Below are positions 9,737-58,430 of a stretch of DNA of 64,000 nucleotides, piece by piece; the stretch's first letter is position 1; every line of letters starts with the position of its first letter. The DNA lies in assembly GCF_013315695.1 (NCBI RefSeq), contig NZ_CP054353.1. The stretch is one strand, 5' to 3'. The notes beneath the pieces are model-generated. The model was given only the letters and a program-made list of their open reading frames with translations, was not told where the DNA came from and ran no database searches. The position numbers and the translations under genes were made by a program. This DNA comes from Escherichia coli (GTDB lineage Bacteria; Pseudomonadota; Gammaproteobacteria; Enterobacterales; Enterobacteriaceae).

Positions 9737-10190
9737 GCAGCAAATCCGACAGGTCTGCCGCCAGTGCATGGACCGCTGCCGGGCGGGTGAAACATGGCCT
9801 CCGGACCTGGCTGAGTTTGTGGCGCTGATTTCAGAAAGCGGGGCCAATCCATTTGGCCTGACGGTGGATGCTGTGATGGAGGAGTACCGCCGCTGGCGTG
9901 ATGAGTCCTGGCGATATGACGGAAGCGACAAATATCCGTGGCCTCAGCCTGTGCTGTACCACATCTGCCTCGAAATGCGTACCAGAGGGATTGAGCGCCA
10001 GATGACGCAGGGTGAGTTAAAACGACTTGCGGAACGGCAACTGACGAAATGGGCAAAGCATGTTGGTAACGGGATGAGTGTTCCGCCAGTGCGACGACAA
10101 CTGGAAGGGGCGAAACACCCGCAAGGGCCAACGCCAATTGAACGGCTGAAACAGGAATACGAACGCCGGAAGGCAGCTGGTTTTATTTGA
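9525..10190 (+). CDS. Replication protein P-like, 221 aa; start uncertain
   Basis: Strong RBS AAGGGGG before the 9525 ATG; region ...YPWPQPVLYHICLEMRTRGIERQMTQGELKRLAERQ... resembles the lambda P N-terminal domain; overlaps the O-like ORF by 211 nt in another frame. Confidence 0.6.
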   Translation: MQQHQVAPHHGQFRKFGQHVSSGNVKTDLSATETVWKLWELMGEVYSNRWTQKNGAAPSKLWIAQIGAMTEQQIRQVCRQCMDRCRAGETWPPDLAEFVALISESGANPFGLTVDAVMEEYRRWRDESWRYDGSDKYPWPQPVLYHICLEMRTRGIERQMTQGELKRLAERQLTKWAKHVGNGMSVPPVRRQLEGAKHPQGPTPIERLKQEYERRKAAGFI

Positions 10191-11009: not shown

Positions 11010-11402
11010 ATGGCAAAAGTATTTACACCAGAAGAGCGGGAAGAAGTGAAGGCGCGCATTGTGGAATTCGTGCGCCTGAGCGGACGAGAAACTTTTCGAC
11101 AACTGGCAGATAAAACGGGTGTCAGTAAGACCGCTATTCGTCGTTTATCTGGTGCGCTTGCGGCCAGTGGTGATGTCTGGCTCTCTGGTTGCGGGGTATT
11201 TCCATCAGAGCAGGCGTATCGCGTATGGCGTAAGACACCGGAGAAGGCTGCTGACCCGACACTGATTCGAAAGTTACCTGACGGAGAAATACGTCGTTAC
11301 AACAGACGGCAGAACATAATTTGTCGTGAGTGCCGCCAGAGCGAAGTTATGCAGCGTGTGCTGGCGTTCTATCGGGGAAACTTTCAGGAGGTGATGGAGT
11401 GA
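11010..11402 (+). CDS. Hypothetical phage protein, 130 aa
   Basis: RBS GGAGG 6 nt before ATG; MAKVFTPEEREEVKARIVEFVRLSGRETFRQLADKTGVSKTAIRRL... Confidence 0.55.
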   Translation: MAKVFTPEEREEVKARIVEFVRLSGRETFRQLADKTGVSKTAIRRLSGALAASGDVWLSGCGVFPSEQAYRVWRKTPEKAADPTLIRKLPDGEIRRYNRRQNIICRECRQSEVMQRVLAFYRGNFQEVME

Positions 11403-13744: not shown

Positions 13745-13889
13745 ATACAGCGAACGCCATTGGTTTAGTTGGATATTTACTGTGCCGGACAAAAACGGTT
13801 TGCGGGGAAATCTTAGTTAAGTAGAATAACTGCGGGTGCTTGAGGCTATCTGTCTCAGGCATGAACACCAAAAGGCAGATAGAGAAAAG

Positions 13890-13953
13890 CCCCAGTTAAC
13901 ATTACGCGTCCTGCAAGACGCTTAACATTAATCTGAGGCCATATCTATGCGAC
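13890..13953 (-). ncRNA. Putative Sok-like antisense RNA of the hok locus (extent approximate)
   Basis: Reverse-strand promoter TTGACC, 18 nt, TAATCT (-35 at 13984-13989, -10 at 13960-13965) pointing across the mok-like start; 3' end not defined. Confidence 0.3.
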
Positions 13954-14006
13954 ACATAGAGATTAGCCTCTTACGGACCGAAAGGTCAAGGAGAAGCAGG
14001 CTATGA
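13947..14006 (+). CDS. mok-like leader ORF (19 codons) translationally coupled to hok
   Basis: ATG CGA CAC ... CTA TGA; its stop overlaps the hok ATG (cTATGAag). Confidence 0.35.
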   Translation: MRHIEISLLRTERSRRSRL

Positions 14007-17367: not shown

Positions 17368-17443
17368 GGCCCTTTAGCTCAGTGGTGAGAGCGAGCGACT
17401 CATAATCGCCAGGTCGCTGGTTCAAATCCAGCAAGGGCCACCA
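17368..17443 (+). tRNA. ileZ: Prophage tRNA with CAU anticodon, Ile2 (lysidine) type, ileZ-like
   Basis: GGCCCTTTAGCTCAGTGGTGAGAGCGAGCGACTCATAATCGCCAGGTCGCTGGTTCAAATCCAGCAAGGGCCACCA; close to host ileX in sequence. Confidence 0.85.
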
Positions 17444-17543: not shown

Positions 17544-17617
17544 GCGTTGTTAGCTCAGCCGGACAGAGCAATTGCCTTCTAAGCAATCGGTCACTGGTTC
17601 GAATCCAGTACAGCGCG
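17544..17617 (+). tRNA. Prophage tRNA-Arg (UCU), argO/argN-like
   Basis: Acceptor GCGTTGT/ACAGCGC, D-stem GCTC/GAGC, anticodon stem ATTGC/GCAAT with loop CTTCTAA, T-arm ACTGGTTCGAATCCAGT; no encoded CCA. Confidence 0.8.
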
Positions 17618-17730
17618 CTATATTCATTCTTCCAGATTCCTTCCGGCAGAGCCTTATACTGAAATATACCTGGCTCAGGATATTGTTGAAAATATTATAT
17701 GTTTGTCAAAAATAAAAGTTCTGTTAAGTA

Positions 17731-18084: not shown

Positions 18085-18531
18085 ATACATATCTGGATTA
18101 TCACTTGTTACGGTAAAAAGTGATTGCTTACTGTTTTTGTGAGTGGCATTGCAGCAGCCGGATAATGTCAGTGCTGGCTGACGGTGTGCTGGTGGCGGGT
18201 GTGGTGGTTGTTGCTTTCCCGTTGCTGAAAAAGAAAACGCCAGACTGTTAGCCGGGTATCAGTTAGCGGGAGAAATTTTTAAATACTTCACAATTCAGGC
18301 GGTTGACTGTTGTCTGGTTTGCGGGGAGTTTGTTAAAAGAAACTGGCATGGTGAATCCCCCTGTGCGGAGGGGCAATCAGCGAGTAGGTATATGGGATAA
18401 TCGCGGATTCAGGTGCTGGTACTGAATTCACCGGGAGGCACCCGGCACCATGCAATGGCACATAGCGCCACTCTCCAGCCCCTCTCCGGAGGGGCTGTTT
18501 ATATTGATTTTGTCAGATGTGAGTAAACTCC

Positions 18532-26523: not shown

Positions 26524-28412
26524 TATGATGAGTGCTGTCACAACAGCATTACAGCCCCTGATAAGGGCATTGCCGGTGACGCCAGTTGAATGGGCTGATC
26601 AAAATTATTATCTGCCTAAAGAATCTTCATATGGTGAGGGAGAATGGAAAACGCTGCCGTTCCAGATCGCCATCATGAACAGCATGGGGAATGATCAGAT
26701 CCGGACTGTTAATCTGATTAAATCTGCCCGTGTTGGCTATACAAAGATGTTGCTGGGGGTGGTCGGGTATTTTATTGAGCATAAATCCCGAAACAGTCTG
26801 CTTTTTCAGCCCACGGATTCTGCCGCTGAAGATTTTATGAAGTCTCACGTGGAGGCGACGATTCGGGATGTGCCATGTCTGAAAGACCTTTCTCCATGGC
26901 TGGGGCGTAAACATCGTGACAATACTCTCACGCTGAAACGCTTTTCATCGGGTGTGGGCTTCTGGTGCCTGGGCGGCGCTGCCGCCAAAAACTACCGTGA
27001 AAAATCCGTGGACGTGGTCTGCTATGACGAACTTTCCTCGTTCGAACCGGATGTCGAAAAAGAGGGTTCGCCAACCCTGCTTGGGGATAAACGTATTGAG
27101 GGCTCTGTATGGCCCAAATCCATTCGCGGCTCGACGCCTAAAATCAAAGGCACCTGCCAGATCGAAAAAGCGGCCAACGAGTCGGCGCATTTCATGCGTT
27201 TTTATGTGCCCTGCCCGCACTGTGGGGAGGCGCAGTATCTGAAATTTGGCGATGAGTCCACGCCTTTTGGCCTTAAATGGGAGAAGGACAGCCCCGAAAG
27301 CGTTTTCTACCTCTGTGAACATCATGGCTGCGTGATCCATCAGTCTGAGCTTGACCAGAGCAACGGGCGGTGGATCTGTGAAAACACGGGGATGTGGACC
27401 CGCGACGGTCTGACGTTTTTCAGCGCTGCGGATAATGAAATTCCGCCGCCGCGCTCCATCACATTCCATATCTGGACGGCGTACAGTCCGTTCACCACCT
27501 GGGTACAGATTGTCTATGACTGGCTGGATGCACTGAAAGATCCCAACGGCCTGAAAACCTTTGTGAACACCACGCTGGGCGAGACCTGGGAAGAGGCCGT
27601 GGGCGAAAAACTCGATCACCAGGTGCTGATGGATAAGGTTGTGCGTTACACGGCTGCGGTGCCTTCCCGGGTGGTTTATCTGACGGCGGGCATTGACTCG
27701 CAGCGAAACCGTTTTGAGATGTATGTCTGGGGATGGGCTCCGGGAGAGGAAGCCTTTCTGGTGGATAAAATCATCATTATGGGGCGTCCCGATGAGGAAG
27801 AGACGCTGTTACGTGTGGATGTGGCGATCAACAAAAAATACCGCCATGCAGACGGAACCGAAATGACCATTTCCCGTGTCTGCTGGGACACCGGGGGGAA
27901 TTGTCTATCAGAGGTCAAAAAAACACGGTGTTTTCCGGGTGCTGCCGGTAAAAGGTGCATCTGTTTATGGCAAGCCGGTGATCACCATGCCAAAAACCCG
28001 CAATCAGCGGGGCGTGTATCTGTGCGAAGTGGGGACGGACACCGCAAAAGAAATTCTCTATGCCCGTATGAAAGCCGATCCCACGCCTGCGGATGAAGCC
28101 ACGTCGTATGCCATCCGTTTTCCTGATGATCCGGAGATTTTTTCGCAGACAGAGGCGCAGCAACTGGTGGCGGAAGAGCTTGTGGAGAAGTGGGAAAAAG
28201 GAAAGATGCGTCTGCTGTGGGATAACAAAAAGCGGCGTAACGAAGCGCTGGACTGCCTGGTGTATGCCTACGCGGCATTACGTGTGTCCGTGCAACGCTG
28301 GCAGCTTGATCTGGCTGTACTGGCAAAATCCCGGGAAGAAGAGACGACCCGGCCAACCCTTAAAGAACTGGCAGCGAAGCTGTCCGGAGGAGTGAATGGT
28401 TACAGTCGCTGA
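26495..28412 (+). pseudogene. A: Terminase large subunit gpA, interrupted by a +1 frameshift near 27893-27900
   Basis: N-terminal 466 aa (MNISEQQLNN...ISRVCWDTGG) and C-terminal 170 aa (...IVYQRSKKHGVFRVLPVKGASVYGKP...) both lambda-gpA-like but in different frames; junction at ccggggggaattg. Confidence 0.6.
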
Positions 28413-28602
28413 ACTGCAGGCGCTGCGTCAGGCGCGCCTTGATTTATTAACCGGTAAACGGGTGGTGTCTGTCCAGAAAGATGGTCGCAGAATTGAATAT
28501 ACGGCAGCTTCTCTGGATGAGCTTAACCGGGCGATCAATGATGCGGAGTCGGTACTGGGGACAACCCGCCGTCGCCGTCGTCCGCTGGGAGTGAGGTTAT
28601 GA
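28396..28602 (+). CDS. W: Head-tail joining protein gpW
   Basis: MVTVAELQALRQARLDLLTGKRVVSVQKDGRRIEYTAASLDEL..., lambda-W-like. Confidence 0.85.
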   Translation: MVTVAELQALRQARLDLLTGKRVVSVQKDGRRIEYTAASLDELNRAINDAESVLGTTRRRRRPLGVRL

Positions 28603-30191
28603 AACGAACGCCTGTCCTGATTGATGTGAACGGCGTTCCGCTTCGGGAGAGCCTCAGCTACAACGGTGGCGGTGCAGGATTTGGCGGGCAAATGGCAGAG
28701 TGGTTGCCACCCTCGCAGAGTGCCGATGCGGCCCTGCTGCCCGCGTTGCGTCTGGGGAATGCCCGTGCAGATGATCTGGTGCGCAATAACGGAATAGCGG
28801 CCAATGCGGTGGCCCTGCATAAGGATCACATTGTCGGGCATATGTTTCTGATCAGTTACCGTCCGAACTGGCGCTGGCTGGGGATGCGGGAGACCGCGGC
28901 AAAAAGTTTTGTCGATGAGGTGGAGGCGGCCTGGTCAGAATACGCAGAAGGGATGTTTGGTGAGATCGACATGGAAGGGAAACGCACGTTCACGGAATTT
29001 ATCCGTGAAGGTGTGGGCGTTCATGCGTTTAACGGCGAAATCTTTGTGCAGCCGGTCTGGGATACGGAGAGCACGCAACTGTTTCGTACGCGTTTTAAAG
29101 CCGTGAGTCCGAAACGGGTGGACACGCCAGGACACGGTATGGGGAACCGTTTTCTGCGGGCCGGTGTGGAGGTCGATCGATATGGTCGTGCCGTTGCGTA
29201 CCATATCTGTGAGGATGATTTTCCTCGCTCCGGGAGTGGACGATGGGAACGGATCCCGCGTGAACTTCCCACCGGGCGTCCGGCCATGCTGCATATTTTC
29301 GAGCCGGTGGAGGACGGGCAGACCCGTGGGGCCAATCAGTTTTACAGCGTAATGGAACGGCTGAAGATGCTCGATTCCCTGCAGGCAACACAGCTTCAGT
29401 CGGCCATAGTGAAGGCGATGTATGCAGCGACGATTGAAAGTGAACTTGATACCGAAAAGGCCTTTGAATATATCGCCGGTGCGCCGCAGGGGCAGAAGGA
29501 TAATCCGCTTATTAATATTCTGGAGAAGTTCTCCACCTGGTATGACACGAATAGCGTGACGCTGGGCGGTGTCAAAATTCCGCACCTTTTCCCCGGTGAT
29601 GATCTGAAACTTCAGACCGCGCAGGATTCAGACAATGGATTTTCGGCGCTTGAACAGGCGCTGCTGCGGTATATCGCCGCCGGTCTTGGCGTTTCCTACG
29701 AACAGTTGTCCCGTGATTACTCGAAGGTCAGTTATTCAAGTGCCCGCGCATCCGCCAATGAGTCGTGGCGCTATTTTATGGGGCGGCGAAAATTTATTGC
29801 GTCCCGGCTGGCCACGCAGATGTTTTCCTGCTGGCTGGAAGAGGCACTTCTTCGGGGGATTATTCGTCCGCCACGGGCGCGTTTTGATTTTTATCAGGCG
29901 CGATCAGCCTGGTCACGGGCTGAGTGGATTGGAGCCGGAAGAATGGCCATTGACGGGCTCAAGGAGGTTCAGGAATCAGTGATGCGCATTGAGGCCGGAC
30001 TGAGCACGTATGAGAAAGAGCTGGCGCTGATGGGCGAGGATTATCAGGACATTTTCCGCCAGCAGGTCAGGGAATCTGCAGAGCGGGAAAAAGCCGGACT
30101 CTCACGTCCGGTGTGGATAGCGCAGGCGTATCAGCAGCAGATAGCGGAGAGTCGCAGGCCGGAAGAGGAGACAACACCACGTGAGACGTAA
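28599..30191 (+). CDS. B: Portal protein gpB
   Basis: 530 aa, lambda-B-like; start overlaps the W stop. Confidence 0.9.
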   Translation: MKRTPVLIDVNGVPLRESLSYNGGGAGFGGQMAEWLPPSQSADAALLPALRLGNARADDLVRNNGIAANAVALHKDHIVGHMFLISYRPNWRWLGMRETAAKSFVDEVEAAWSEYAEGMFGEIDMEGKRTFTEFIREGVGVHAFNGEIFVQPVWDTESTQLFRTRFKAVSPKRVDTPGHGMGNRFLRAGVEVDRYGRAVAYHICEDDFPRSGSGRWERIPRELPTGRPAMLHIFEPVEDGQTRGANQFYSVMERLKMLDSLQATQLQSAIVKAMYAATIESELDTEKAFEYIAGAPQGQKDNPLINILEKFSTWYDTNSVTLGGVKIPHLFPGDDLKLQTAQDSDNGFSALEQALLRYIAAGLGVSYEQLSRDYSKVSYSSARASANESWRYFMGRRKFIASRLATQMFSCWLEEALLRGIIRPPRARFDFYQARSAWSRAEWIGAGRMAIDGLKEVQESVMRIEAGLSTYEKELALMGEDYQDIFRQQVRESAEREKAGLSRPVWIAQAYQQQIAESRRPEEETTPRET

Positions 30192-34927: not shown

Positions 34928-35674
34928 ATGGCAACACCAAATCCCCTTGAGCCGGTAAAAGGTGCCGGTACCACTCTGTGGGTTTACAACGGCAAGGCTG
35001 ATGCTTACGCAAACCCGTTGTCAGACGATGGCTGGCAGCGACTGGCTAAGGTGAAGGATCTGACGCCGGGCGAGATGACGGCTGAACCCTACGATGATAA
35101 CTACCTGGATGATGAAGACGCGGACTGGACCGCGACCGGGCAGGGACAGAAATCTGCAGGTGATACCAGTTTTACGCTGGCCTGGAAACCGGGAGAGGAA
35201 GGCCAGAAAGGGCTTATAGGCTGGTTTGAAAGCGGCGATGTCCGGGCCTATAAAATCCGTTTTCCGAATGGCACGGTGGATGTGTTTCGTGGCTGGGTCA
35301 GCAGTATCGGTAAGGCCGTGACGGCGAAAGAAGTGATCACCCGCACGGTGAAAGTCACTAACGTGGGTAAACCTTCTGTAGCGGAAGAACGCAGCAAAAT
35401 TACGCCGGTCACTGCGATTAAGGTAACGCCGACAGGTACGGTTGAAAAAGGGAAAACAACCACCCTGACCGTTACTGTGGAACCGGAAAATGCAACGGAT
35501 AAGACATTCAGGGCGATTTCCGCCGATCCATCAAAAGCCACCATTAGCGTGAAAGATATGACGATTACTGTGACGGGGGTTAAGGATGGAAAAGTCAGCA
35601 TCCCTGTGATTTCCGGTAATGGTCAGTTTGCTGCGGTGGCTGAAATTACCGTTAATAATGTGCCGGGTGGCTAA
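34928..35674 (+). CDS. V: Major tail protein gpV
   Basis: ...[76 protein letters not shown]..., lambda-V-like. Confidence 0.9.
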
Positions 35675-35692: not shown

Positions 35693-36124
35693 ATGTTCCT
35701 GAAAACAGAACAATTTGAATATAACGGTGTATCCGTCACGCTTTCTGAGCTGTCTGCGCTGCAGCGTATTGAGCATCTTGCCCTCCTGAAACGGCGGGCA
35801 GAAGAGGCTGAAGCCAGCGGCAACCTGCAGGTGAGTGTGGAAGATCTTGTCAGAACCGGCGCGTTTCTGGTGGCGATGTCCCTGTGGCATAACCATCCAC
35901 AGAAAACGCAGTCACCGTCAATGAATGAGGCCGTGATGAAGATAGAGCAGGAAGTGCTCACCACCTGGCCTGCCGATGCCATTGCCCGGGCGGAAGACGT
36001 GGTGTTGTGCCTGTCCGGGATGATCGAAGCTGTTCGTCCGGATACTGATATTACTGAAGTGGCGAAAAATAACACGCTGACTGATGATGATTTTTCTGCG
36101 GGAAAGTCTTCGACGGCGAGCTGA
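35693..36124 (+). CDS. G: Tail assembly chaperone gpG
   Basis: MFLKTEQFEYNGVSVTLSELSALQRIEHLALLKRRAEEAEASG..., lambda-G-like. Confidence 0.9.
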   Translation: MFLKTEQFEYNGVSVTLSELSALQRIEHLALLKRRAEEAEASGNLQVSVEDLVRTGAFLVAMSLWHNHPQKTQSPSMNEAVMKIEQEVLTTWPADAIARAEDVVLCLSGMIEAVRPDTDITEVAKNNTLTDDDFSAGKSSTAS

Positions 36125-36564
36125 ACTTTGCCCTCAGACTGGCGCGTGAGATGGGGAGACCCGACTGGCGCGCCATGCTTGCCGGGATGACATCCACCGA
36201 ATATGCCGACTGGCACCGTTTTTACCGCACGCATTATTTTCAGGATACCCAGCTGGATATGCATTTTTCCGGGCTGACGTACGCTGTACTCAGCCTGTTT
36301 TTTTGCGATCCGGATATGCATCCCTCTGATTTCAGTCTGCTTGTCCCCCGGCATGAGGAAGAGCAGGTGGAGAGGCCGGATGAGGACAAAATGCTGATGC
36401 AGAAAGCGGCAGGACTTGCCGGAGGCGTCCGGTTCGGTGGGGACGGAGGGCGCGATATTTTATCGTCTGCGGATGTGGCGGATGTCATGGTGGATGATGC
36501 CGCATTAATGATGGCTTCAGCGGGGATTCCGGGAGGTGTGAGATATGTCCCAGCCGGTTGGTGA
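35693..36564 (+). CDS. GT: Tail assembly chaperone G-T fusion by programmed -1 frameshift at 36100-36106
   Basis: Slippery heptamer G GGA AAG at 36100-36106; the -1 frame is open from 36106 to 36564. Confidence 0.75.
36100..36106 (+). promoter_or_regulatory. Programmed -1 ribosomal frameshift slippery site (G GGA AAG)
   Basis: Same heptamer as the lambda G/GT site, 18 nt before the G stop. Confidence 0.75.
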
Positions 36565-41812: not shown

Positions 41813-44800
41813 ATGGGAAAAGGTGGCGGTAAGGCACACACGCCTCGTGAGGCGAAGGATAATCTCAAATCCACGCAGATGATGAGTGTGATTGATGCGA
41901 TTGGTGAGGGACCGATAGAAGGTCCGGTGAAGGGACTGCAGAGTATTCTGGTGAACAAAACCCCGCTGACGGACACGGACGGTAATCCCGTGATACACGG
42001 TGTGACTGCGGTCTGGCGTGCCGGGGAGCAGGAGCAGACACCACCGGAAGGCTTTGAGTCCTCCGGAGCTGAAACCGGACTGGGCGTGGAAGTGACGAAG
42101 GCAAAACCGGTGACGCGCACCATTACGTCCGCGAACATTGACCGCCTGCGGGTTACCTTCGGGGTGCAGTCACTGGTGCAGACCACGTCAAAGGGCGACC
42201 GTAATCCTTCCTCTGTCCGGATTCTGATTCAGTTACAGCGTAATGGCCGCTGGGTGACGGAAAAGGATGTCACCATTAACGGCAAGACCACCTCGCAGTT
42301 CCTGGCCTCGGTGATTCTGGATAATCTGCCTCCCCGGCCCTTTAACATCCGGATGGTCAGGGAGACGGCGGACAGCACCACGGACCAGCTGCAGAATAAG
42401 ACGCTGTGGTCGTCATACACCGAAATCATCGATGTGAAACAGTGCTACCCGAACACGGCCATTGTGGGGCTGCAGGTGGATGCGGAGCAGTTCGGCGGCC
42501 AGCAGATGACGGTGAACTACCATATCCGCGGTCGCATCATCCAGGTGCCGTCAAACTATGACCCGGAAAAACGCACGTACAGTGGTATCTGGGACGGCAG
42601 CCTGAAACCGGCATACAGCAACAACCCGGCCTGGTGTCTGTGGGACATGCTGACTCACCCGCGCTACGGCATGGGAAAACGTCTGGGGGCGGCGGATGTG
42701 GACAAGTGGGCGCTGTATGCCATCGGGCAGTACTGCGACCAGACGGTCCCGGATGGTTTCGGGGGGACCGAGCCGCGGATGACCTTTAATGCGTACCTGG
42801 CACAACAGCGTAAGGCGTGGGACGTTCTCAGTGATTTCTGCTCTGCGATGCGCTGTATGCCGGTATGGAACGGCCAGACGCTGACGTTCGTTCAGGACCG
42901 TCCGTCGGATGTGGTGTGGCCGTACACCAACAGCGATGTGGTGGTGGATGATAACGGCGTGGGTTTCCGCTACAGCTCCAGTGCCCTGAAGGACCGGCAC
43001 ACGGCAGTGGAGGTGAATTACACCGACCCGCAGAACGGCTGGCAGACCTCCACGGAACTGGTGGAAGACCCGGAAGCCATACTGCGCTACGGACGCAACC
43101 TGCTGAAGATGGACGCGTTCGGCTGTACCAGCCGCGGTCAGGCCCACCGTGCCGGGCTGTGGGTGATAAAGACCGAACTGCTGGAAACGCAGACGGTGGA
43201 TTTCACGCTTGGGTCACAGGGGCTGCGTCACACACCCGGTGACATCATTGAAATCTGTGATAACGACTATGCCGGGACCATGACCGGCGGACGTGTCCTG
43301 TCCATCGATGCCGCCAGCCGTACCCTGACGCTGGACCGGGAGGTGACACTGCCGGAGACCGGCACGGCCACTGTTAATCTGATTAACGGCAGCGGTAAGC
43401 CGGCGAGCGTGGCCATCACCGCACACCCCGCGCCTGACCGGATACAGGTCAGCACCCTGCCGGATGGTGTGGAGACATACGGTGTGTGGGGACTCTCCCT
43501 GCCGTCACTGCGTCGTCGCCTGTTCCGCTGTGTCTCCATCCGGGAAAACACGGACGGCACCTTTGCCATCACGGCGGTGCAGCACGTACCTGAAAAAGAA
43601 GCCATCGTGGATAACGGGGCCCGCTTTGAGCCGCAGTCAGGCACCCTGAACAGCGTTATCCCACCGGCAGTGCAGCACCTGACGGTGGAGGTGAGCGCAG
43701 CTGACGGCCAGTATCTGGCGCAGGCTAAATGGGACACGCCGCGGGTGGTGAAGGGCGTGCGCTTCAGTCTGCGCCTGACCAGTGGTAAGGGAACGGATGC
43801 CAGACTGGTGACCACCGCCATCACCGCAGACACGGAGCACCGTTTCAGCGGCCTGCCACTGGGGGAATACACCCTGACGGTGCGGGCCATTAACAGCTAC
43901 GGCCAGCAGGGCGAACCTGCGACCACCACCTTCCGGATTAACGCGCCTGCAAAACCCGCCACCATTGAGCTGACGCCGGGGTATTTTCAGATAACGGCGG
44001 TACCGGTGCTGGCGGTGTATGACCCGACGGTGCAGTTTGAATTCTGGTTCTCAGAAAAACGCATCACGAACACGGCACAGGTGGAAAAATCTGCCCGTTA
44101 TCTGGGGACCGGCAGTCAGTGGACTGTCCAGGGGAGCCGGATTAAGCCGGGGACGGATTTCTGGTTTTACGTGCGAAGCGTCAACCTGGTGGGAAAATCT
44201 GCTTTTGTGGAAGCCAGCGGGCAGCCCAGCAATGATGGTGAAGGGTATCTGGAAATTTTCCGGGGGCTGATAGATGAGACGCTTCTGGGGCAGGCACTGA
44301 AAGAGCGCATTGATGCTTCAGCGCTGCGTACGGAGGTCACGCAACTGGAAGAAGATATCCGTCAGCGGATGGACACGGATATCGCAGAAGTGACCCGGAA
44401 AATCGGGAAGGCGGAAAACAGCCTCACGCAGCTGGTTGCGAAAAAGAATGAGGACCAGACACTGGCCATCGCGCAGGTGAGCCAGAAAGTGGACCGGGTG
44501 AGCAGTGAAATCTCACAGACTGTCAGCCAGGGGCAGTCAGAAAACGCCCGACAGATAGCACAGGTCCGCCAGTACGTGGATAAAAAAGGGAGTGAAATTA
44601 CCTCGACCACGGATAAAAAGCTGGGTGACCAGGCCGTGACCATACAGCAAATCCAGCGGGTTCAGTCAGACACGCGCAATGAGCTGAATGCCATGTATAT
44701 GCTGAAGGTGCAGAAAACAAAAAACGGTATTCCCTATGTGGCCGGGATTGGCGCGGGGATTGAGGATGTTGATGGTCAGACCCTGAGTAACATTCTGCTG

Positions 44801-53158: not shown

Positions 53159-53830
53159 ATGAAGATTCTACTTATTGAAGATAATCAAAGGACCCAGGAA
53201 TGGGTAACGCAGGGGCTTTCCGAAGCGGGTTATGTCATTGATGCCGTTTCTGATGGCAGAGATGGGCTTTATCTTGCGCTGAAGGATGATTATGCATTGA
53301 TCATTCTGGATATTATGCTTCCGGGTATGGATGGCTGGCAGATCTTACAAACGTTAAGAACGGCAAAGCAAACTCCTGTTATTTGCCTTACAGCAAGGGA
53401 TTCTGTCGATGACAGAGTCAGAGGGCTGGACAGTGGAGCAAATGATTATCTGGTAAAACCTTTTTCATTTTCTGAGTTGCTGGCAAGGGTTCGGGCACAA
53501 TTAAGGCAACATCACGCTTTGAATTCAACATTAGAAATCAGTGGCTTAAAAATGGACTCTGTCAGTCAAAGTGTGAGCAGGGACAATATCAGTATTACAC
53601 TGACGCGCAAGGAGTTTCAGTTACTTTGGCTACTGGCCTCCAGAGCTGGCGAGATTATACCCAGAACGGTTATTGCGAGTGAAATTTGGGGAATCAACTT
53701 TGATAGTGAGACCAATACGGTGGATGTCGCCATTCGCAGGCTCCGCGCAAAAGTTGATGATCCTTTTCCTGAAAAGCTAATCGCCACAATCCGGGGGATG
53801 GGCTATTCATTCGTAGCGGTAAAAAAATAA
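53159..53830 (+). CDS. hprR: Two-component response regulator HprR (YedW)
   Basis: MKILLIEDNQRTQEWVTQGLSEAGY..., OmpR-family winged-helix C-terminus. Confidence 0.85.
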   Translation: MKILLIEDNQRTQEWVTQGLSEAGYVIDAVSDGRDGLYLALKDDYALIILDIMLPGMDGWQILQTLRTAKQTPVICLTARDSVDDRVRGLDSGANDYLVKPFSFSELLARVRAQLRQHHALNSTLEISGLKMDSVSQSVSRDNISITLTRKEFQLLWLLASRAGEIIPRTVIASEIWGINFDSETNTVDVAIRRLRAKVDDPFPEKLIATIRGMGYSFVAVKK

Positions 53831-55188
53831 TGAAAAGATTATCTATAACCGTCCGTTTAACCTTGCTTTTTATATTGCTGCTGTCTGTTGCTGGCGCTGG
53901 AATTGTATGGACTCTCTATAATGGCCTGGCAAGTGAGTTGAAATGGCGCGATGATACAACACTCATTAACCGGACAGCGCAGATCAAGCAGTTGTTAATT
54001 GATGGGGTAAATCCAGATACGTTACCTGTGTACTTTAACCGGATGATGGATGTTAGTCAGGATATTTTGATCATTCATGGTGATGGCATCAATAAAATTG
54101 TTAACCGGACAAATGTCAGTGATGACATGTTAAATAACATACCTGCTAGTGAGACAATCAGCGCAGCAGGCATTTACAGAAGCATTATTAATGATACAGA
54201 GATAGATGCTTTACGAATTAACATTGATGAAGTTTCGCCATCATTAACGGTTACTGTGGCTAAATTGGCTTCAGCCAGACATAATATGCTTGAACAGTAT
54301 AAAATTAATAGCATTATAATTTGCATTGTCGCCATTATATTGTGCTCAGTATTAAGTCCGTTGTTAATCAGGACGGGGTTGCGAGAGATCAAAAAGTTGA
54401 GTGGCGTAACGGAAGCGCTGAATTATAACGATAGCCGAGTGCCGGTTGAGGTTAGCGCATTACCGAGAGAACTAAAACCTCTTGGGCAGGCGTTGAATAA
54501 AATGCATCATGCTTTAGTCAAAGATTTTGAGCGCCTTAGTCAATTTGCTGACGATCTCGCTCATGAACTTAGAACGCCAATTAATGCATTACTGGGTCAG
54601 AATCAGGTTACGCTCAGTCAAATCAGAAGTATCGCTGAATATCAAAAAACAATTGCCGGAAACATTGAAGAGCTGGAAAATATTTCGCGGTTAACAGAGA
54701 ATATACTGTTTCTTGCCAGGGCAGACAAAAACAATGTTTTGGTGAAACTGGATGCGCTTTCTCTCAATAAGGAAGTTGAAAATCTTTTGGACTATCTTGA
54801 ATATCTTTCAGACGAGAAAGAGATTCGTTTTAAGGTCGAGTGCAATCAACAAATCTTTGCGGATAAAATTTTACTGCAACGAATGTTATCGAATCTTATT
54901 GTTAACGCCATTCGATATTCACCAGAAAAATCGCGTATTCATATAACCAGTTTTCTTGATGCCAACGGTTCTCTTAATATTGATATCGCCAGTCCTGGAA
55001 CGAAAATTAATGAGCCTGAAAAACTCTTCCGTAGATTTTGGCGGGGAGATAATTCGCGTCATTCCGTAGGTCAGGGACTTGGCCTTTCTTTAGTCAAAGC
55101 GATTGCCGAATTACATGGAGGAAGTGCTACGTATCACTATCTCAGTAAGCATAACGTGTTCCGAATTACGTTACCGCAAAGAAATTAA
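53830..55188 (+). CDS. hprS: Sensor histidine kinase HprS (YedV)
   Basis: 452 aa, two TM segments, H-box ...ELRTPINALLGQ..., ATPase domain; start overlaps hprR stop. Confidence 0.85.
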   Translation: MKRLSITVRLTLLFILLLSVAGAGIVWTLYNGLASELKWRDDTTLINRTAQIKQLLIDGVNPDTLPVYFNRMMDVSQDILIIHGDGINKIVNRTNVSDDMLNNIPASETISAAGIYRSIINDTEIDALRINIDEVSPSLTVTVAKLASARHNMLEQYKINSIIICIVAIILCSVLSPLLIRTGLREIKKLSGVTEALNYNDSRVPVEVSALPRELKPLGQALNKMHHALVKDFERLSQFADDLAHELRTPINALLGQNQVTLSQIRSIAEYQKTIAGNIEELENISRLTENILFLARADKNNVLVKLDALSLNKEVENLLDYLEYLSDEKEIRFKVECNQQIFADKILLQRMLSNLIVNAIRYSPEKSRIHITSFLDANGSLNIDIASPGTKINEPEKLFRRFWRGDNSRHSVGQGLGLSLVKAIAELHGGSATYHYLSKHNVFRITLPQRN

Positions 55189-57801: not shown

Positions 57802-58430
57802 TATGTATTCCCTTGTGATTATAATCTTCATGAATATATCAATAAGTGCTGTTATCCAAAAAAAGCACATTTGGATACTATTCTATGAAGTTCATTTTAT
57901 TTTAAAGATTACATGTAACAAATGTATTTAAAAGATTTCAAAATGTTTCTAATCTATTTAATATAATTCATAGTTATGAATTCTGAATATAAATATTCAC
58001 GAATATTATGGATATATATCAATATGTTATGAGTTGATCGAAAAGATAGGGAGTATCAATGATTGTTGCGCTAAACGGCTGGTGTGATCTCGCGCACATT
58101 AATGAAGGCATAAAAAAAAGCCGGCATCATGCCGGCCCAAAAAAATATAAACAAGACGATAAAAGGCTAATAACGGAGGCATGATGACACAGAAAAATAA
58201 AAAGGTATAATTGTAATCAGTACCAATATATTGATTGAATGAATTAATAAAGCCGAAATCAAAGATAAATAACATCGTTCAAATCGATTTTTCCTGTATT
58301 CACCGCCGTTGCGCAAAATTTATCTATTTGTTCAAAAAATGATTGAGTCTTGACTGGCTCATCCAATGTGGAAAAATGTGACTTTTATCACATAATAGTT
58401 CTAAGTCTGAATTTTCCGGGTTATCTCAAA

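Follow-up and report, generated by a model that had tools for sequence, protein, structure and literature searches.

How could one phage locus yield both a tail assembly chaperone and a longer form of it, when the second of its two overlapping reading frames appears to have no start of its own? The question is raised by a junction in a 64,000-nucleotide stretch of Escherichia coli DNA (contig NZ_CP054353.1 of RefSeq assembly GCF_013315695.1; hereafter the window), where a lambdoid prophage carries the gene for the tail assembly chaperone G (gpG) and, overlapping its end in the -1 frame, a segment resembling T of phage lambda. A sequence-only reading of the window had proposed that the heptamer GGGAAAG at 36100-36106 is a conserved programmed -1 frameshift site, from which a G-T fusion chaperone would be made at low frequency as in lambda. 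With a probability that we put at about 0.93, the site is the programmed -1 ribosomal frameshift site of the lambda-family tail assembly chaperone pair in this prophage. What was observed directly comprises the geometry of the site, the families to which the two frames belong and their synteny, a slip column and a -1-frame peptide that are both conserved among relatives, and a T segment that has no conserved start; these are presented below in that order.

Geometry of the Slip Site

Reading the codons of gpG confirmed both the position of the heptamer and its phase, G GGA AAG: the zero-frame codons are GCG (36098), GGA (36101) and AAG (36104), with 36100 in third codon position. Five sense codons follow (TCT TCG ACG GCG AGC) before the TGA of gpG, leaving a gap of 15 nucleotides (nt), or 18 nt when the stop codon itself is counted in; the distance of 18 nt given by the earlier reading matches the latter count, which is apparently the one it used. 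The -1 frame is closed upstream by a TGA at 36088-36090 and then meets no stop from 36091 until the TGA at 36562-36564, through the T-like segment, just as had been claimed. Because of this upstream stop and of the stop of gpG, any shift that yields a fusion is confined to an overlap of 31 nt, and the heptamer sits within it (table 1). An alternative slip on the T run T TTT TCT at 36091-36097 was considered and rejected, given that a tRNA-Ser in the ribosomal A site would be unable to re-pair and that the run is missing in lambda, which has CCT GTT TCT.

Table 1. Features of the G/T junction and its neighbours in the window
Feature	Positions	Strand	Basis or remark
Major tail tube protein, lambda V-like, with C-terminal Big_2 domain	34928-35674	+	PF16461 Phage_TTP_12, E = 1.2e-67; PF02368
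gpG gene, 143 codons; product of 143 amino acids, 15.7 kDa, tail assembly chaperone G	35693-36124	+	Open reading frame and profile matches
Overlap of 31 nt, -1 frame open and zero frame unterminated	36091-36121	+	Frame arithmetic
Slippery heptamer GGGAAAG, phase G GGA AAG	36100-36106	+	Phase checked on the letters
T segment in the -1 frame, 152 codons and stop	36106-36564	+	PF06223, TIGR01715
Predicted 71-nt stem-loop, candidate weak stimulator	36114-36184	+	Minimum free energy -36.6 kcal/mol; starts 7 nt after the heptamer
gpG stop TGA, predicted to be bypassed by shifted ribosomes	36122-36124	+
First ATG of the -1 frame, annotated start of 'tail assembly protein T'	36151-36153	+	Probably an internal Met
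Tape measure protein, lambda H-like, 857 amino acids	36545-39118	+	PF06791 TMP_2, PF09718 Tape_meas_lam_C

Could such a heptamer stand here by chance? The motif alone is not rare, for GGGAAAG occurs 13 times on both strands of the window against an expectation of 9.6 +/- 3.4. The expectation is much smaller for the 10 eligible positions, amounting to about 0.001 for an in-phase GGGAAAG and to about 0.04 for any in-phase XXXYYYZ in which Y is A or T. We nevertheless rejected a chance origin on other grounds, namely the family identity, synteny and conservation of the two frames.

Family Identity and Comparison with Lambda

Both reading frames of the junction are curated equivalogs of the lambda proteins. 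The product of gpG matches PF06894 (Phage_TAC_2) with E = 3.5e-51 and the phage_lambda_G equivalog TIGR01674 with 166 bits, where the cutoff is 74, while the T segment matches Phage_tail_T (PF06223) and the phage_lam_T equivalog TIGR01715 with 212 bits against a cutoff of 77. The predicted fusion, gpGT, combines residues 1-138 of G with the T segment into a protein of 290 amino acids and 32.2 kDa, in which DDDFSAGK is followed directly by VFDGELNF; the Glu-C peptide predicted to span this junction is VAKNNTLTDDDFSAGKVFDGE. A family of annotated GT fusions of 290 positions, phrog_32165, aligns with the G half over 1-142 and with the T half over 140-290, a half-to-half mapping that fits the predicted junction. 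A search of PDB sequences with the gpGT fusion gave no match.

The setting is that of lambda as well. Genes follow the order Z-U-V-G-T-H-M-L-K-I-J, the same as in lambda, with G and T between the V-like and H-like genes (table 1) and the start of the H-like gene overlapping the end of T by 20 nt. The heptamer is identical to that of lambda (NC_001416, 10109-10115) and lies in the same phase, at the same 15 nt from the stop of G and with the same -1 entry into T, within sequence that is 87% identical to lambda around the slip site. Over 285 residues the two gpGT proteins are 70.6% identical (E = 3e-143). The comparison 'as in lambda' therefore holds for equivalog identity, synteny, heptamer, spacing and fusion sequence alike. 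Differences from lambda lie in the length of the proteins, with G of 143 instead of 140 amino acids and GT of 290 instead of 279, and in two diverged regions, the acidic linker that precedes the heptamer and the C-terminal third of T.

Conservation across Relatives

The site had also been called conserved, a statement that holds for its position and for the peptide beyond it, while the motif itself varies. When the predicted fusion was compared by tblastn with 50,697 phage records, 185 records matched; among the matches listed, the fusion aligned in two parts lying in neighbouring frames, with identities as low as about 38%, except in Gifsy-2, where a single T-domain piece was found. Related loci retrieved with gpG were all 98-100% identical, too close to be informative, and conservation was examined in 13 annotated relatives and in 80 distinct junctions, the latter obtained after a scan of viral contigs with a degenerate DNA pattern. 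In both sets the slip site occupies the same alignment column, always with an A-rich Lys codon. The 80 junctions have GGAAAAG in 52 cases, GGGAAAG in 16, GGCAAAA in six, AAAAAAG in four and two further motifs once each. Judged from these alignments, what is conserved is the position together with a slippery Lys codon, not any single heptamer. From the slip column onward the peptide encoded by the -1 frame is kept as xFxxELxFxxxLARE[M/F]GRPDWRAML. Within the 15 nt that this frame shares with the tail of G, pairwise codon differences comprise 0 synonymous and 111 non-synonymous cases in the zero frame, as against 27 synonymous cases in the -1 frame.

Among the 13 relatives, the heptamer sorts by phage type: GGGAAAG in the lambda type, AAAAAAG in the Stx type and GGAAAAG in the phi80, N15, mEp and Gifsy types. 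Phages of the phi80/N15/mEp237/LLS/Gifsy-2 type resemble the window in having homologous G and T (38-52% identity), the same slip column and a conserved -1 peptide after it; they differ in having the non-canonical G GAA AAG, with GAA and not GGA as the P-site codon, a heptamer that has been rated 'less slippery' (PMC6924986). In the mEp460, phi458 and Gifsy-2 type the stop of G is just 3 nt from the slip site, compared with the 15 nt of the window. The Stx-phage/Sakai type belongs to the same family as the window, has the same column and the same distance of 15 nt to the stop, and its proteins are about 63-66% identical to the window fusion. It differs in its heptamer, A AAA AAG, which would place tRNA-Lys in both ribosomal sites, and corresponds to the cluster A_AAA_AAG_25, ECs1801, of Sharma et al. 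2014 (PMC4066793).

Some of the viral contigs deserve a separate comment. Those of the GGCAAAA class (L193, L207, L102, L107, L128 and L142) read ..CTG GCA AAA TAG, with the Lys codon AAA abutting the stop, and T still follows in the -1 frame. Tandem slippage of two tRNAs would be impossible there, and the arrangement looks like a P-site slip on A_AAA beside a stop codon, or 'shifty stop'. Another contig (L177) has GGTAAAG at the slip column.

Does T Start on Its Own?

The evidence presented so far has to be set against the simplest reading of existing annotations, in which G and T are two independent genes and T initiates at the ATG at 36151, without any fusion. The NCBI Prokaryotic Genome Annotation Pipeline (PGAP) and many phage records present the locus in this way, and the ATG does open a frame of 137 amino acids. 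Yet the Met at 36151 is not conserved, being replaced by Phe in seven of the 13 relatives (mEp237, phi80, mEp213, LLS, mEp460, phi458 and Gifsy-2), a replacement also stated for the N15 lineage, and across the relatives the first ATG of the -1 frame varies in position from +15 to +69 nt from the slip site. Conserved coding sequence, moreover, reaches 15 codons 5' of 36151, up to the slip column, and the match to TIGR01715 begins at residue 5 of the -1-frame peptide, which precedes this Met by 11 residues. The duplex that the anti-Shine-Dalgarno (anti-SD) sequence could form 5' of the ATG amounts to just -2.3 kcal/mol, as compared with -11.6 for H and -9.5 for M. The PHROG family of fusions covers both halves, and it is as a fusion that the product functions in lambda (PMC5009743).

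Nor is there any earlier start codon, since the -1 frame between 36091 and 36151 has no ATG, GTG or TTG before 36151. In the lambda record the T coding sequence (CDS) starts with a GTG at 10115, the base that ends the heptamer; in the window the first -1-frame codon is GTC, and a lambda-style T start at the slip point is consequently impossible. Altogether, the conserved -1 peptide, the pattern of zero-frame substitutions, the non-conserved Met, the extent of TIGR01715, the weak SD and the lack of an earlier start codon argue that T cannot stand as a gene of its own. Its annotated Met at 36151 is probably internal and not a start, and we regard independent initiation of T as highly improbable.

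Proposed Mechanism of the Frameshift and Its Alternatives

If the locus works as in lambda, most ribosomes would translate gpG and terminate at the TGA at 36122. In a small fraction, the P-site tRNA-Gly paired with GGA and the A-site tRNA-Lys (anticodon mnm5s2UUU) paired with AAG would both slip one base in the 5' direction and re-pair with GGG and AAA. Decoding would then resume at GTC 36106 in the -1 frame and proceed through T to 36564, producing gpGT of 290 amino acids. If the analogy with lambda holds, gpG in many copies and gpGT in few would coat the tape measure protein via their G parts; the T domain would recruit the tail tube protein, the tube would polymerise around the tape measure and neither chaperone would be found in the finished virion. 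The frequency of frameshifting would thus set the ratio of G to GT.

This scheme follows what has been established in lambda, where a low-level -1 frameshift at G_GGA_AAG yields G and GT at about 30:1; H, the tape measure, is bound by the G parts and V, the tail tube, by the T domain, and neither chaperone is present in the virion (PMC5009743). About 96% of ribosomes stay in frame and about 4% shift (PMC3296357), and the loss of the s2U34 modification of tRNA-Lys increases frameshifting and lowers phage yield (PMC3296357; PMC7618472). Few heptamers are as prone to shifting in E. coli as G GGA AAG (PMC5009743; PMC6924986). Table S4 of Sharma et al. 2014 lists an E. coli prophage gpG cluster, G_GGA_AAG_4, with 74 genes and marked as 'true' (PMC4066793).

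For the prophage of the window we infer by analogy that the shift occurs, that its frequency is of a few per cent and that the products have the lambda functions; the low-frequency G-T fusion foreseen by the sequence-only reading is supported, by homology with the proven case of lambda. By every criterion testable on sequence, the junction is a member of the lambda G/GT family, and nothing in its sequence argues against the lambda mechanism. That mechanism is by now textbook matter, and the programmed -1 frameshift of lambda G/GT is reportedly described in work by Levin, Hendrix and Casjens (1993) and by Xu, Hendrix and Duda (2004, 2013, 2014). With the prophage gene cluster catalogued earlier as a true frameshift, the feature is an already known and ordinary one. 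Its biological interest is small, as it constitutes a further copy of a recoding event by which two tail assembly chaperones are made in a set ratio.

This interpretation needs to be qualified by some points that weigh against it. The bare signature of the site is unspecific: when frames of at least 100 amino acids in the window were scanned for an in-phase XXXYYYZ no further than 150 nt from the stop, with the -1 frame extending for 50 codons or more, 8 of the 124 mechanically defined open reading frames (ORFs) carried the same signature. In reporters, G_GGA_AAG shifts at 0.277% without a stimulator, at 3.8% with the stimulators of IS911 and at 43% with the pseudoknot of IS3 (PMC4066793), so a frequency of a few per cent depends on context, the bare motif giving just 0.28%. 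The weak SD of T is not decisive either, since the start of gpG itself is weak, with -3.0 kcal/mol. Given the unspecific signature, the case for a G/GT site rests on family identity, synteny and conservation across relatives. The other matches of the scan that were examined in the window turned out to be non-genes or ordinary overlapping gene pairs in which the downstream gene has its own SD.

A different objection is that the heptamer might be an inherited relic in a defective prophage, unexpressed or functionless in this strain, many E. coli prophages being cryptic. The prophage nevertheless looks complete, for its lambdoid gene complement includes cro/cI, replication genes, Q, lysis, terminase, portal, protease and capsid genes, all tail genes, J, Lom and a fibre gene, while G, T, H and their neighbours are unbroken ORFs with full-length family matches. 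The 872-bp segment containing G and T recurs with 100% identity in many E. coli chromosomes and with 98.6% identity in the isolated, plaque-forming PhiR phages. Related copies of G-T are found in 3,647 of 5,426 complete E. coli genomes, or about two-thirds, and hundreds of sequenced E. coli prophages have identical or near-identical copies of the slip site. A functionless relic is very unlikely.

The fusion could, finally, arise from slippage of RNA polymerase and not of the ribosome. Polymerase slippage on runs of A or T does occur in bacteria (PMC5009743), and some relatives have the longer A run of AAAAAAG; the runs of the window, however, are G3 and A3, far below the seven or more that support such slippage, and they form a canonical heptamer for ribosomal tandem slippage in the proper phase. 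In lambda, furthermore, the frequency tracks the modification state of tRNA-Lys, a translational property (PMC3296357). We thus give transcriptional slippage almost no credence and retain the programmed ribosomal frameshift as the explanation of the locus.

A Possible Downstream Stimulator

How would the natural site reach a few per cent of frameshifting? The stem-loop predicted downstream of the heptamer (table 1), composed of an outer stem (36114-36121/36177-36184) and an inner hairpin (36140-36155/36160-36175), could boost the shift as in the stimulated sites of the IS911 type. Such a contribution, which would refine the frameshift reading without competing with it, is in our opinion doubtful, and the evidence that bears upon it is divided.

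The position of the structure is suitable, its spacer of 7 nt falling within the canonical range of 5-9 nt (PMC5009743). The fold of 100 nt in the window has z = -3.65, with none of 200 shuffles folding as well, although the corresponding fold of lambda reaches only z = -1.55, with 13 of 200 shuffles as good. The predicted stem is slightly stronger than that of lambda (-36.6 vs. -34.8 kcal/mol), with a C-G replacing a U-G of lambda at one pair. Native folds also beat synonymous recodings, the median z being -1.95 and the individual values -2.70 for the window, -2.29 for lambda, -2.65 for phi80 and -2.96 for Gifsy-2, under a null that follows late-gene codon usage and does not preserve local composition.

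The comparative evidence is similarly mixed. Across the 13 sequences, 86% of cells are paired as against 24-45% in slid registers, and five pairs have changed on both sides; across the 80 junctions the paired cells are 85.6%, compared with 23-55% for slid partners. Pair 16-84 is A-T in 33 junctions, G-C in 25 and C-G in five, with about three independent compensatory switches. Once events are counted along the tree, however, about 70 of them break a pair and 34 restore one, against about six compensatory double changes and 35 single changes that keep the pair. The structure was, in addition, derived from one of the sequences on which it was tested, and its columns encode a very conserved peptide.

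The difference between the bare motif (0.277%) and the same motif with the stimulators of IS911 (3.8%) leaves room for a modest natural stimulator, the more moderate of the stimulated values (PMC4066793) being close to the roughly 4% of lambda (PMC3296357). Sharma et al. recorded 'structure: Y' for the gpG cluster (PMC4066793). Their Table S8, on the other hand, reports a hairpin in 51% of the members (54 nt, with a spacer of 7 nt) with a ddG/nt of 0.020 +/- 0.095 against a threshold of 0.09 (PMC4066793), and they placed the cluster among those with possibly fortuitous hairpins, no better than the local background (PMC4066793). The review by Atkins states that the shifts of tailed phages seem to be without stimulatory signals (PMC5009743).

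An SD-like stimulator is not present upstream: the interval 6-17 nt 5' of the heptamer (36083-36094, GATGATGATTTT) has no GGAG, GAGG or AGGA, and Table S4 of Sharma et al. gives 'SD: N' for cluster G_GGA_AAG_4 (PMC4066793). The window shares with IS911, the IS3 family and dnaX a tandem-slip heptamer ending in A AAG, a longer fusion product and possibly a 3' hairpin at a spacer of 7 nt. Those systems differ in having experimentally proven 3' hairpins or pseudoknots, often together with an SD-like stimulator upstream, and in their shift frequencies of 10-50%, whereas the window is without an upstream SD-like element and its 3' structure is predicted only.

That the conserved 71-nt stem-loop is a genuine, moderate 3' stimulator of G/GT frameshifting in the lambda family is therefore a tentative proposal, to which we would give rather low odds. 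If correct, it would explain why the natural site reaches about 3-4% when bare G_GGA_AAG gives about 0.3% in reporters, and it would contradict the view, expressed at the level of reviews, that the G-T shifts of tailed phages need no stimulatory signal. The contribution of the stem-loop to the frameshift rate is the one point of the locus that may be of specialist interest.

Annotation of the Junction

The claim that gene callers split the locus in two proved right. PGAP reports gpG (WP_001299690.1) and a T of 137 amino acids (WP_000533402.1) as separate CDSs, and most phage records likewise split G and T. Few curators have marked the frameshift, as in LLS (a joined CDS with a misc_feature), Gifsy-2 (a note reading 'G+G' frameshift hybrid') and lambda h434 imm21 (a note reading 'frameshift product GT'). 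The exact fusion of 290 amino acids was not found among about 15 billion deposited proteins, although the G and T halves each occur on at least 1,000 contigs of the same collection. It is due to the split that the real product of this allele, with its 290 amino acids, is missing from protein databases. The practical value of the present analysis lies in annotation, for RefSeq PGAP and the majority of phage submissions make 'protein T' begin, artificially, from an internal Met.

One related genome, NZ_CP124436.1 (L216), illustrates the situation. In it PGAP joins the transposase of IS1397, of the IS3 family (43368-44716), into a CDS labelled as 'programmed frameshift', while at 28105-28976 gpG and T are left as two CDSs, with T starting from an internal Met. 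A split G/T beside a joined transposase amounts to a systematic annotation gap.

Other Heptamers and Features of the Window

Other slippery heptamers of the window lie close to the ends of genes. At the junction of hprR and hprS (53821-53832) an in-phase A AAA AAA stands right before the stop of hprR (GTA AAA AAA TAA), and the ATG of hprS overlaps this stop (TAATG). A -1 shift would join the response regulator to the sensor kinase of 452 amino acids, but the two genes most likely form a translationally coupled pair with a chance run of A. At 11375-11381 an in-phase G GGA AAC is found 18 nt before the stop of a prophage gene with a DUF977 domain, and the -1 frame enters a DUF4406 gene of about 97 codons that has a strong SD of its own (AGGAGG, 11386-11391). 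G GGA AAC is poorly slippery in E. coli, with 0.16-0.9% (PMC4066793), and its presence here is probably due to chance.

The prophage has two tRNA genes, at 17368-17443 and 17544-17618, downstream of the Q-like antiterminator. One has the anticodon CAT and is called Met by ARAGORN and Ile by PGAP in a near-identical genome; the other is tRNA-Arg(TCT), which decodes AGA, a rare codon. Two AGA codons occur in T shortly downstream of the slip site (36136-36138 and 36157-36159), where lambda has AAA and CGA. Matches to Rfam above the gathering score were found within the prophage for sok (13834-14005, + strand), an antitoxin RNA that adjoins hokD in a related genome, DicF (6262-6313, - strand) and STnc100 (18317-18506, + strand), and in the flanking chromosome for rseX (58113-58203, - strand). 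The genes for tRNA-Asn(GTT) (680-755, - strand) and tRNA-Ser(CGA) (1747-1836, + strand) occupy the left end of the window, immediately ahead of the early region of the prophage; the tRNA-Ser gene is a plausible site of prophage integration.

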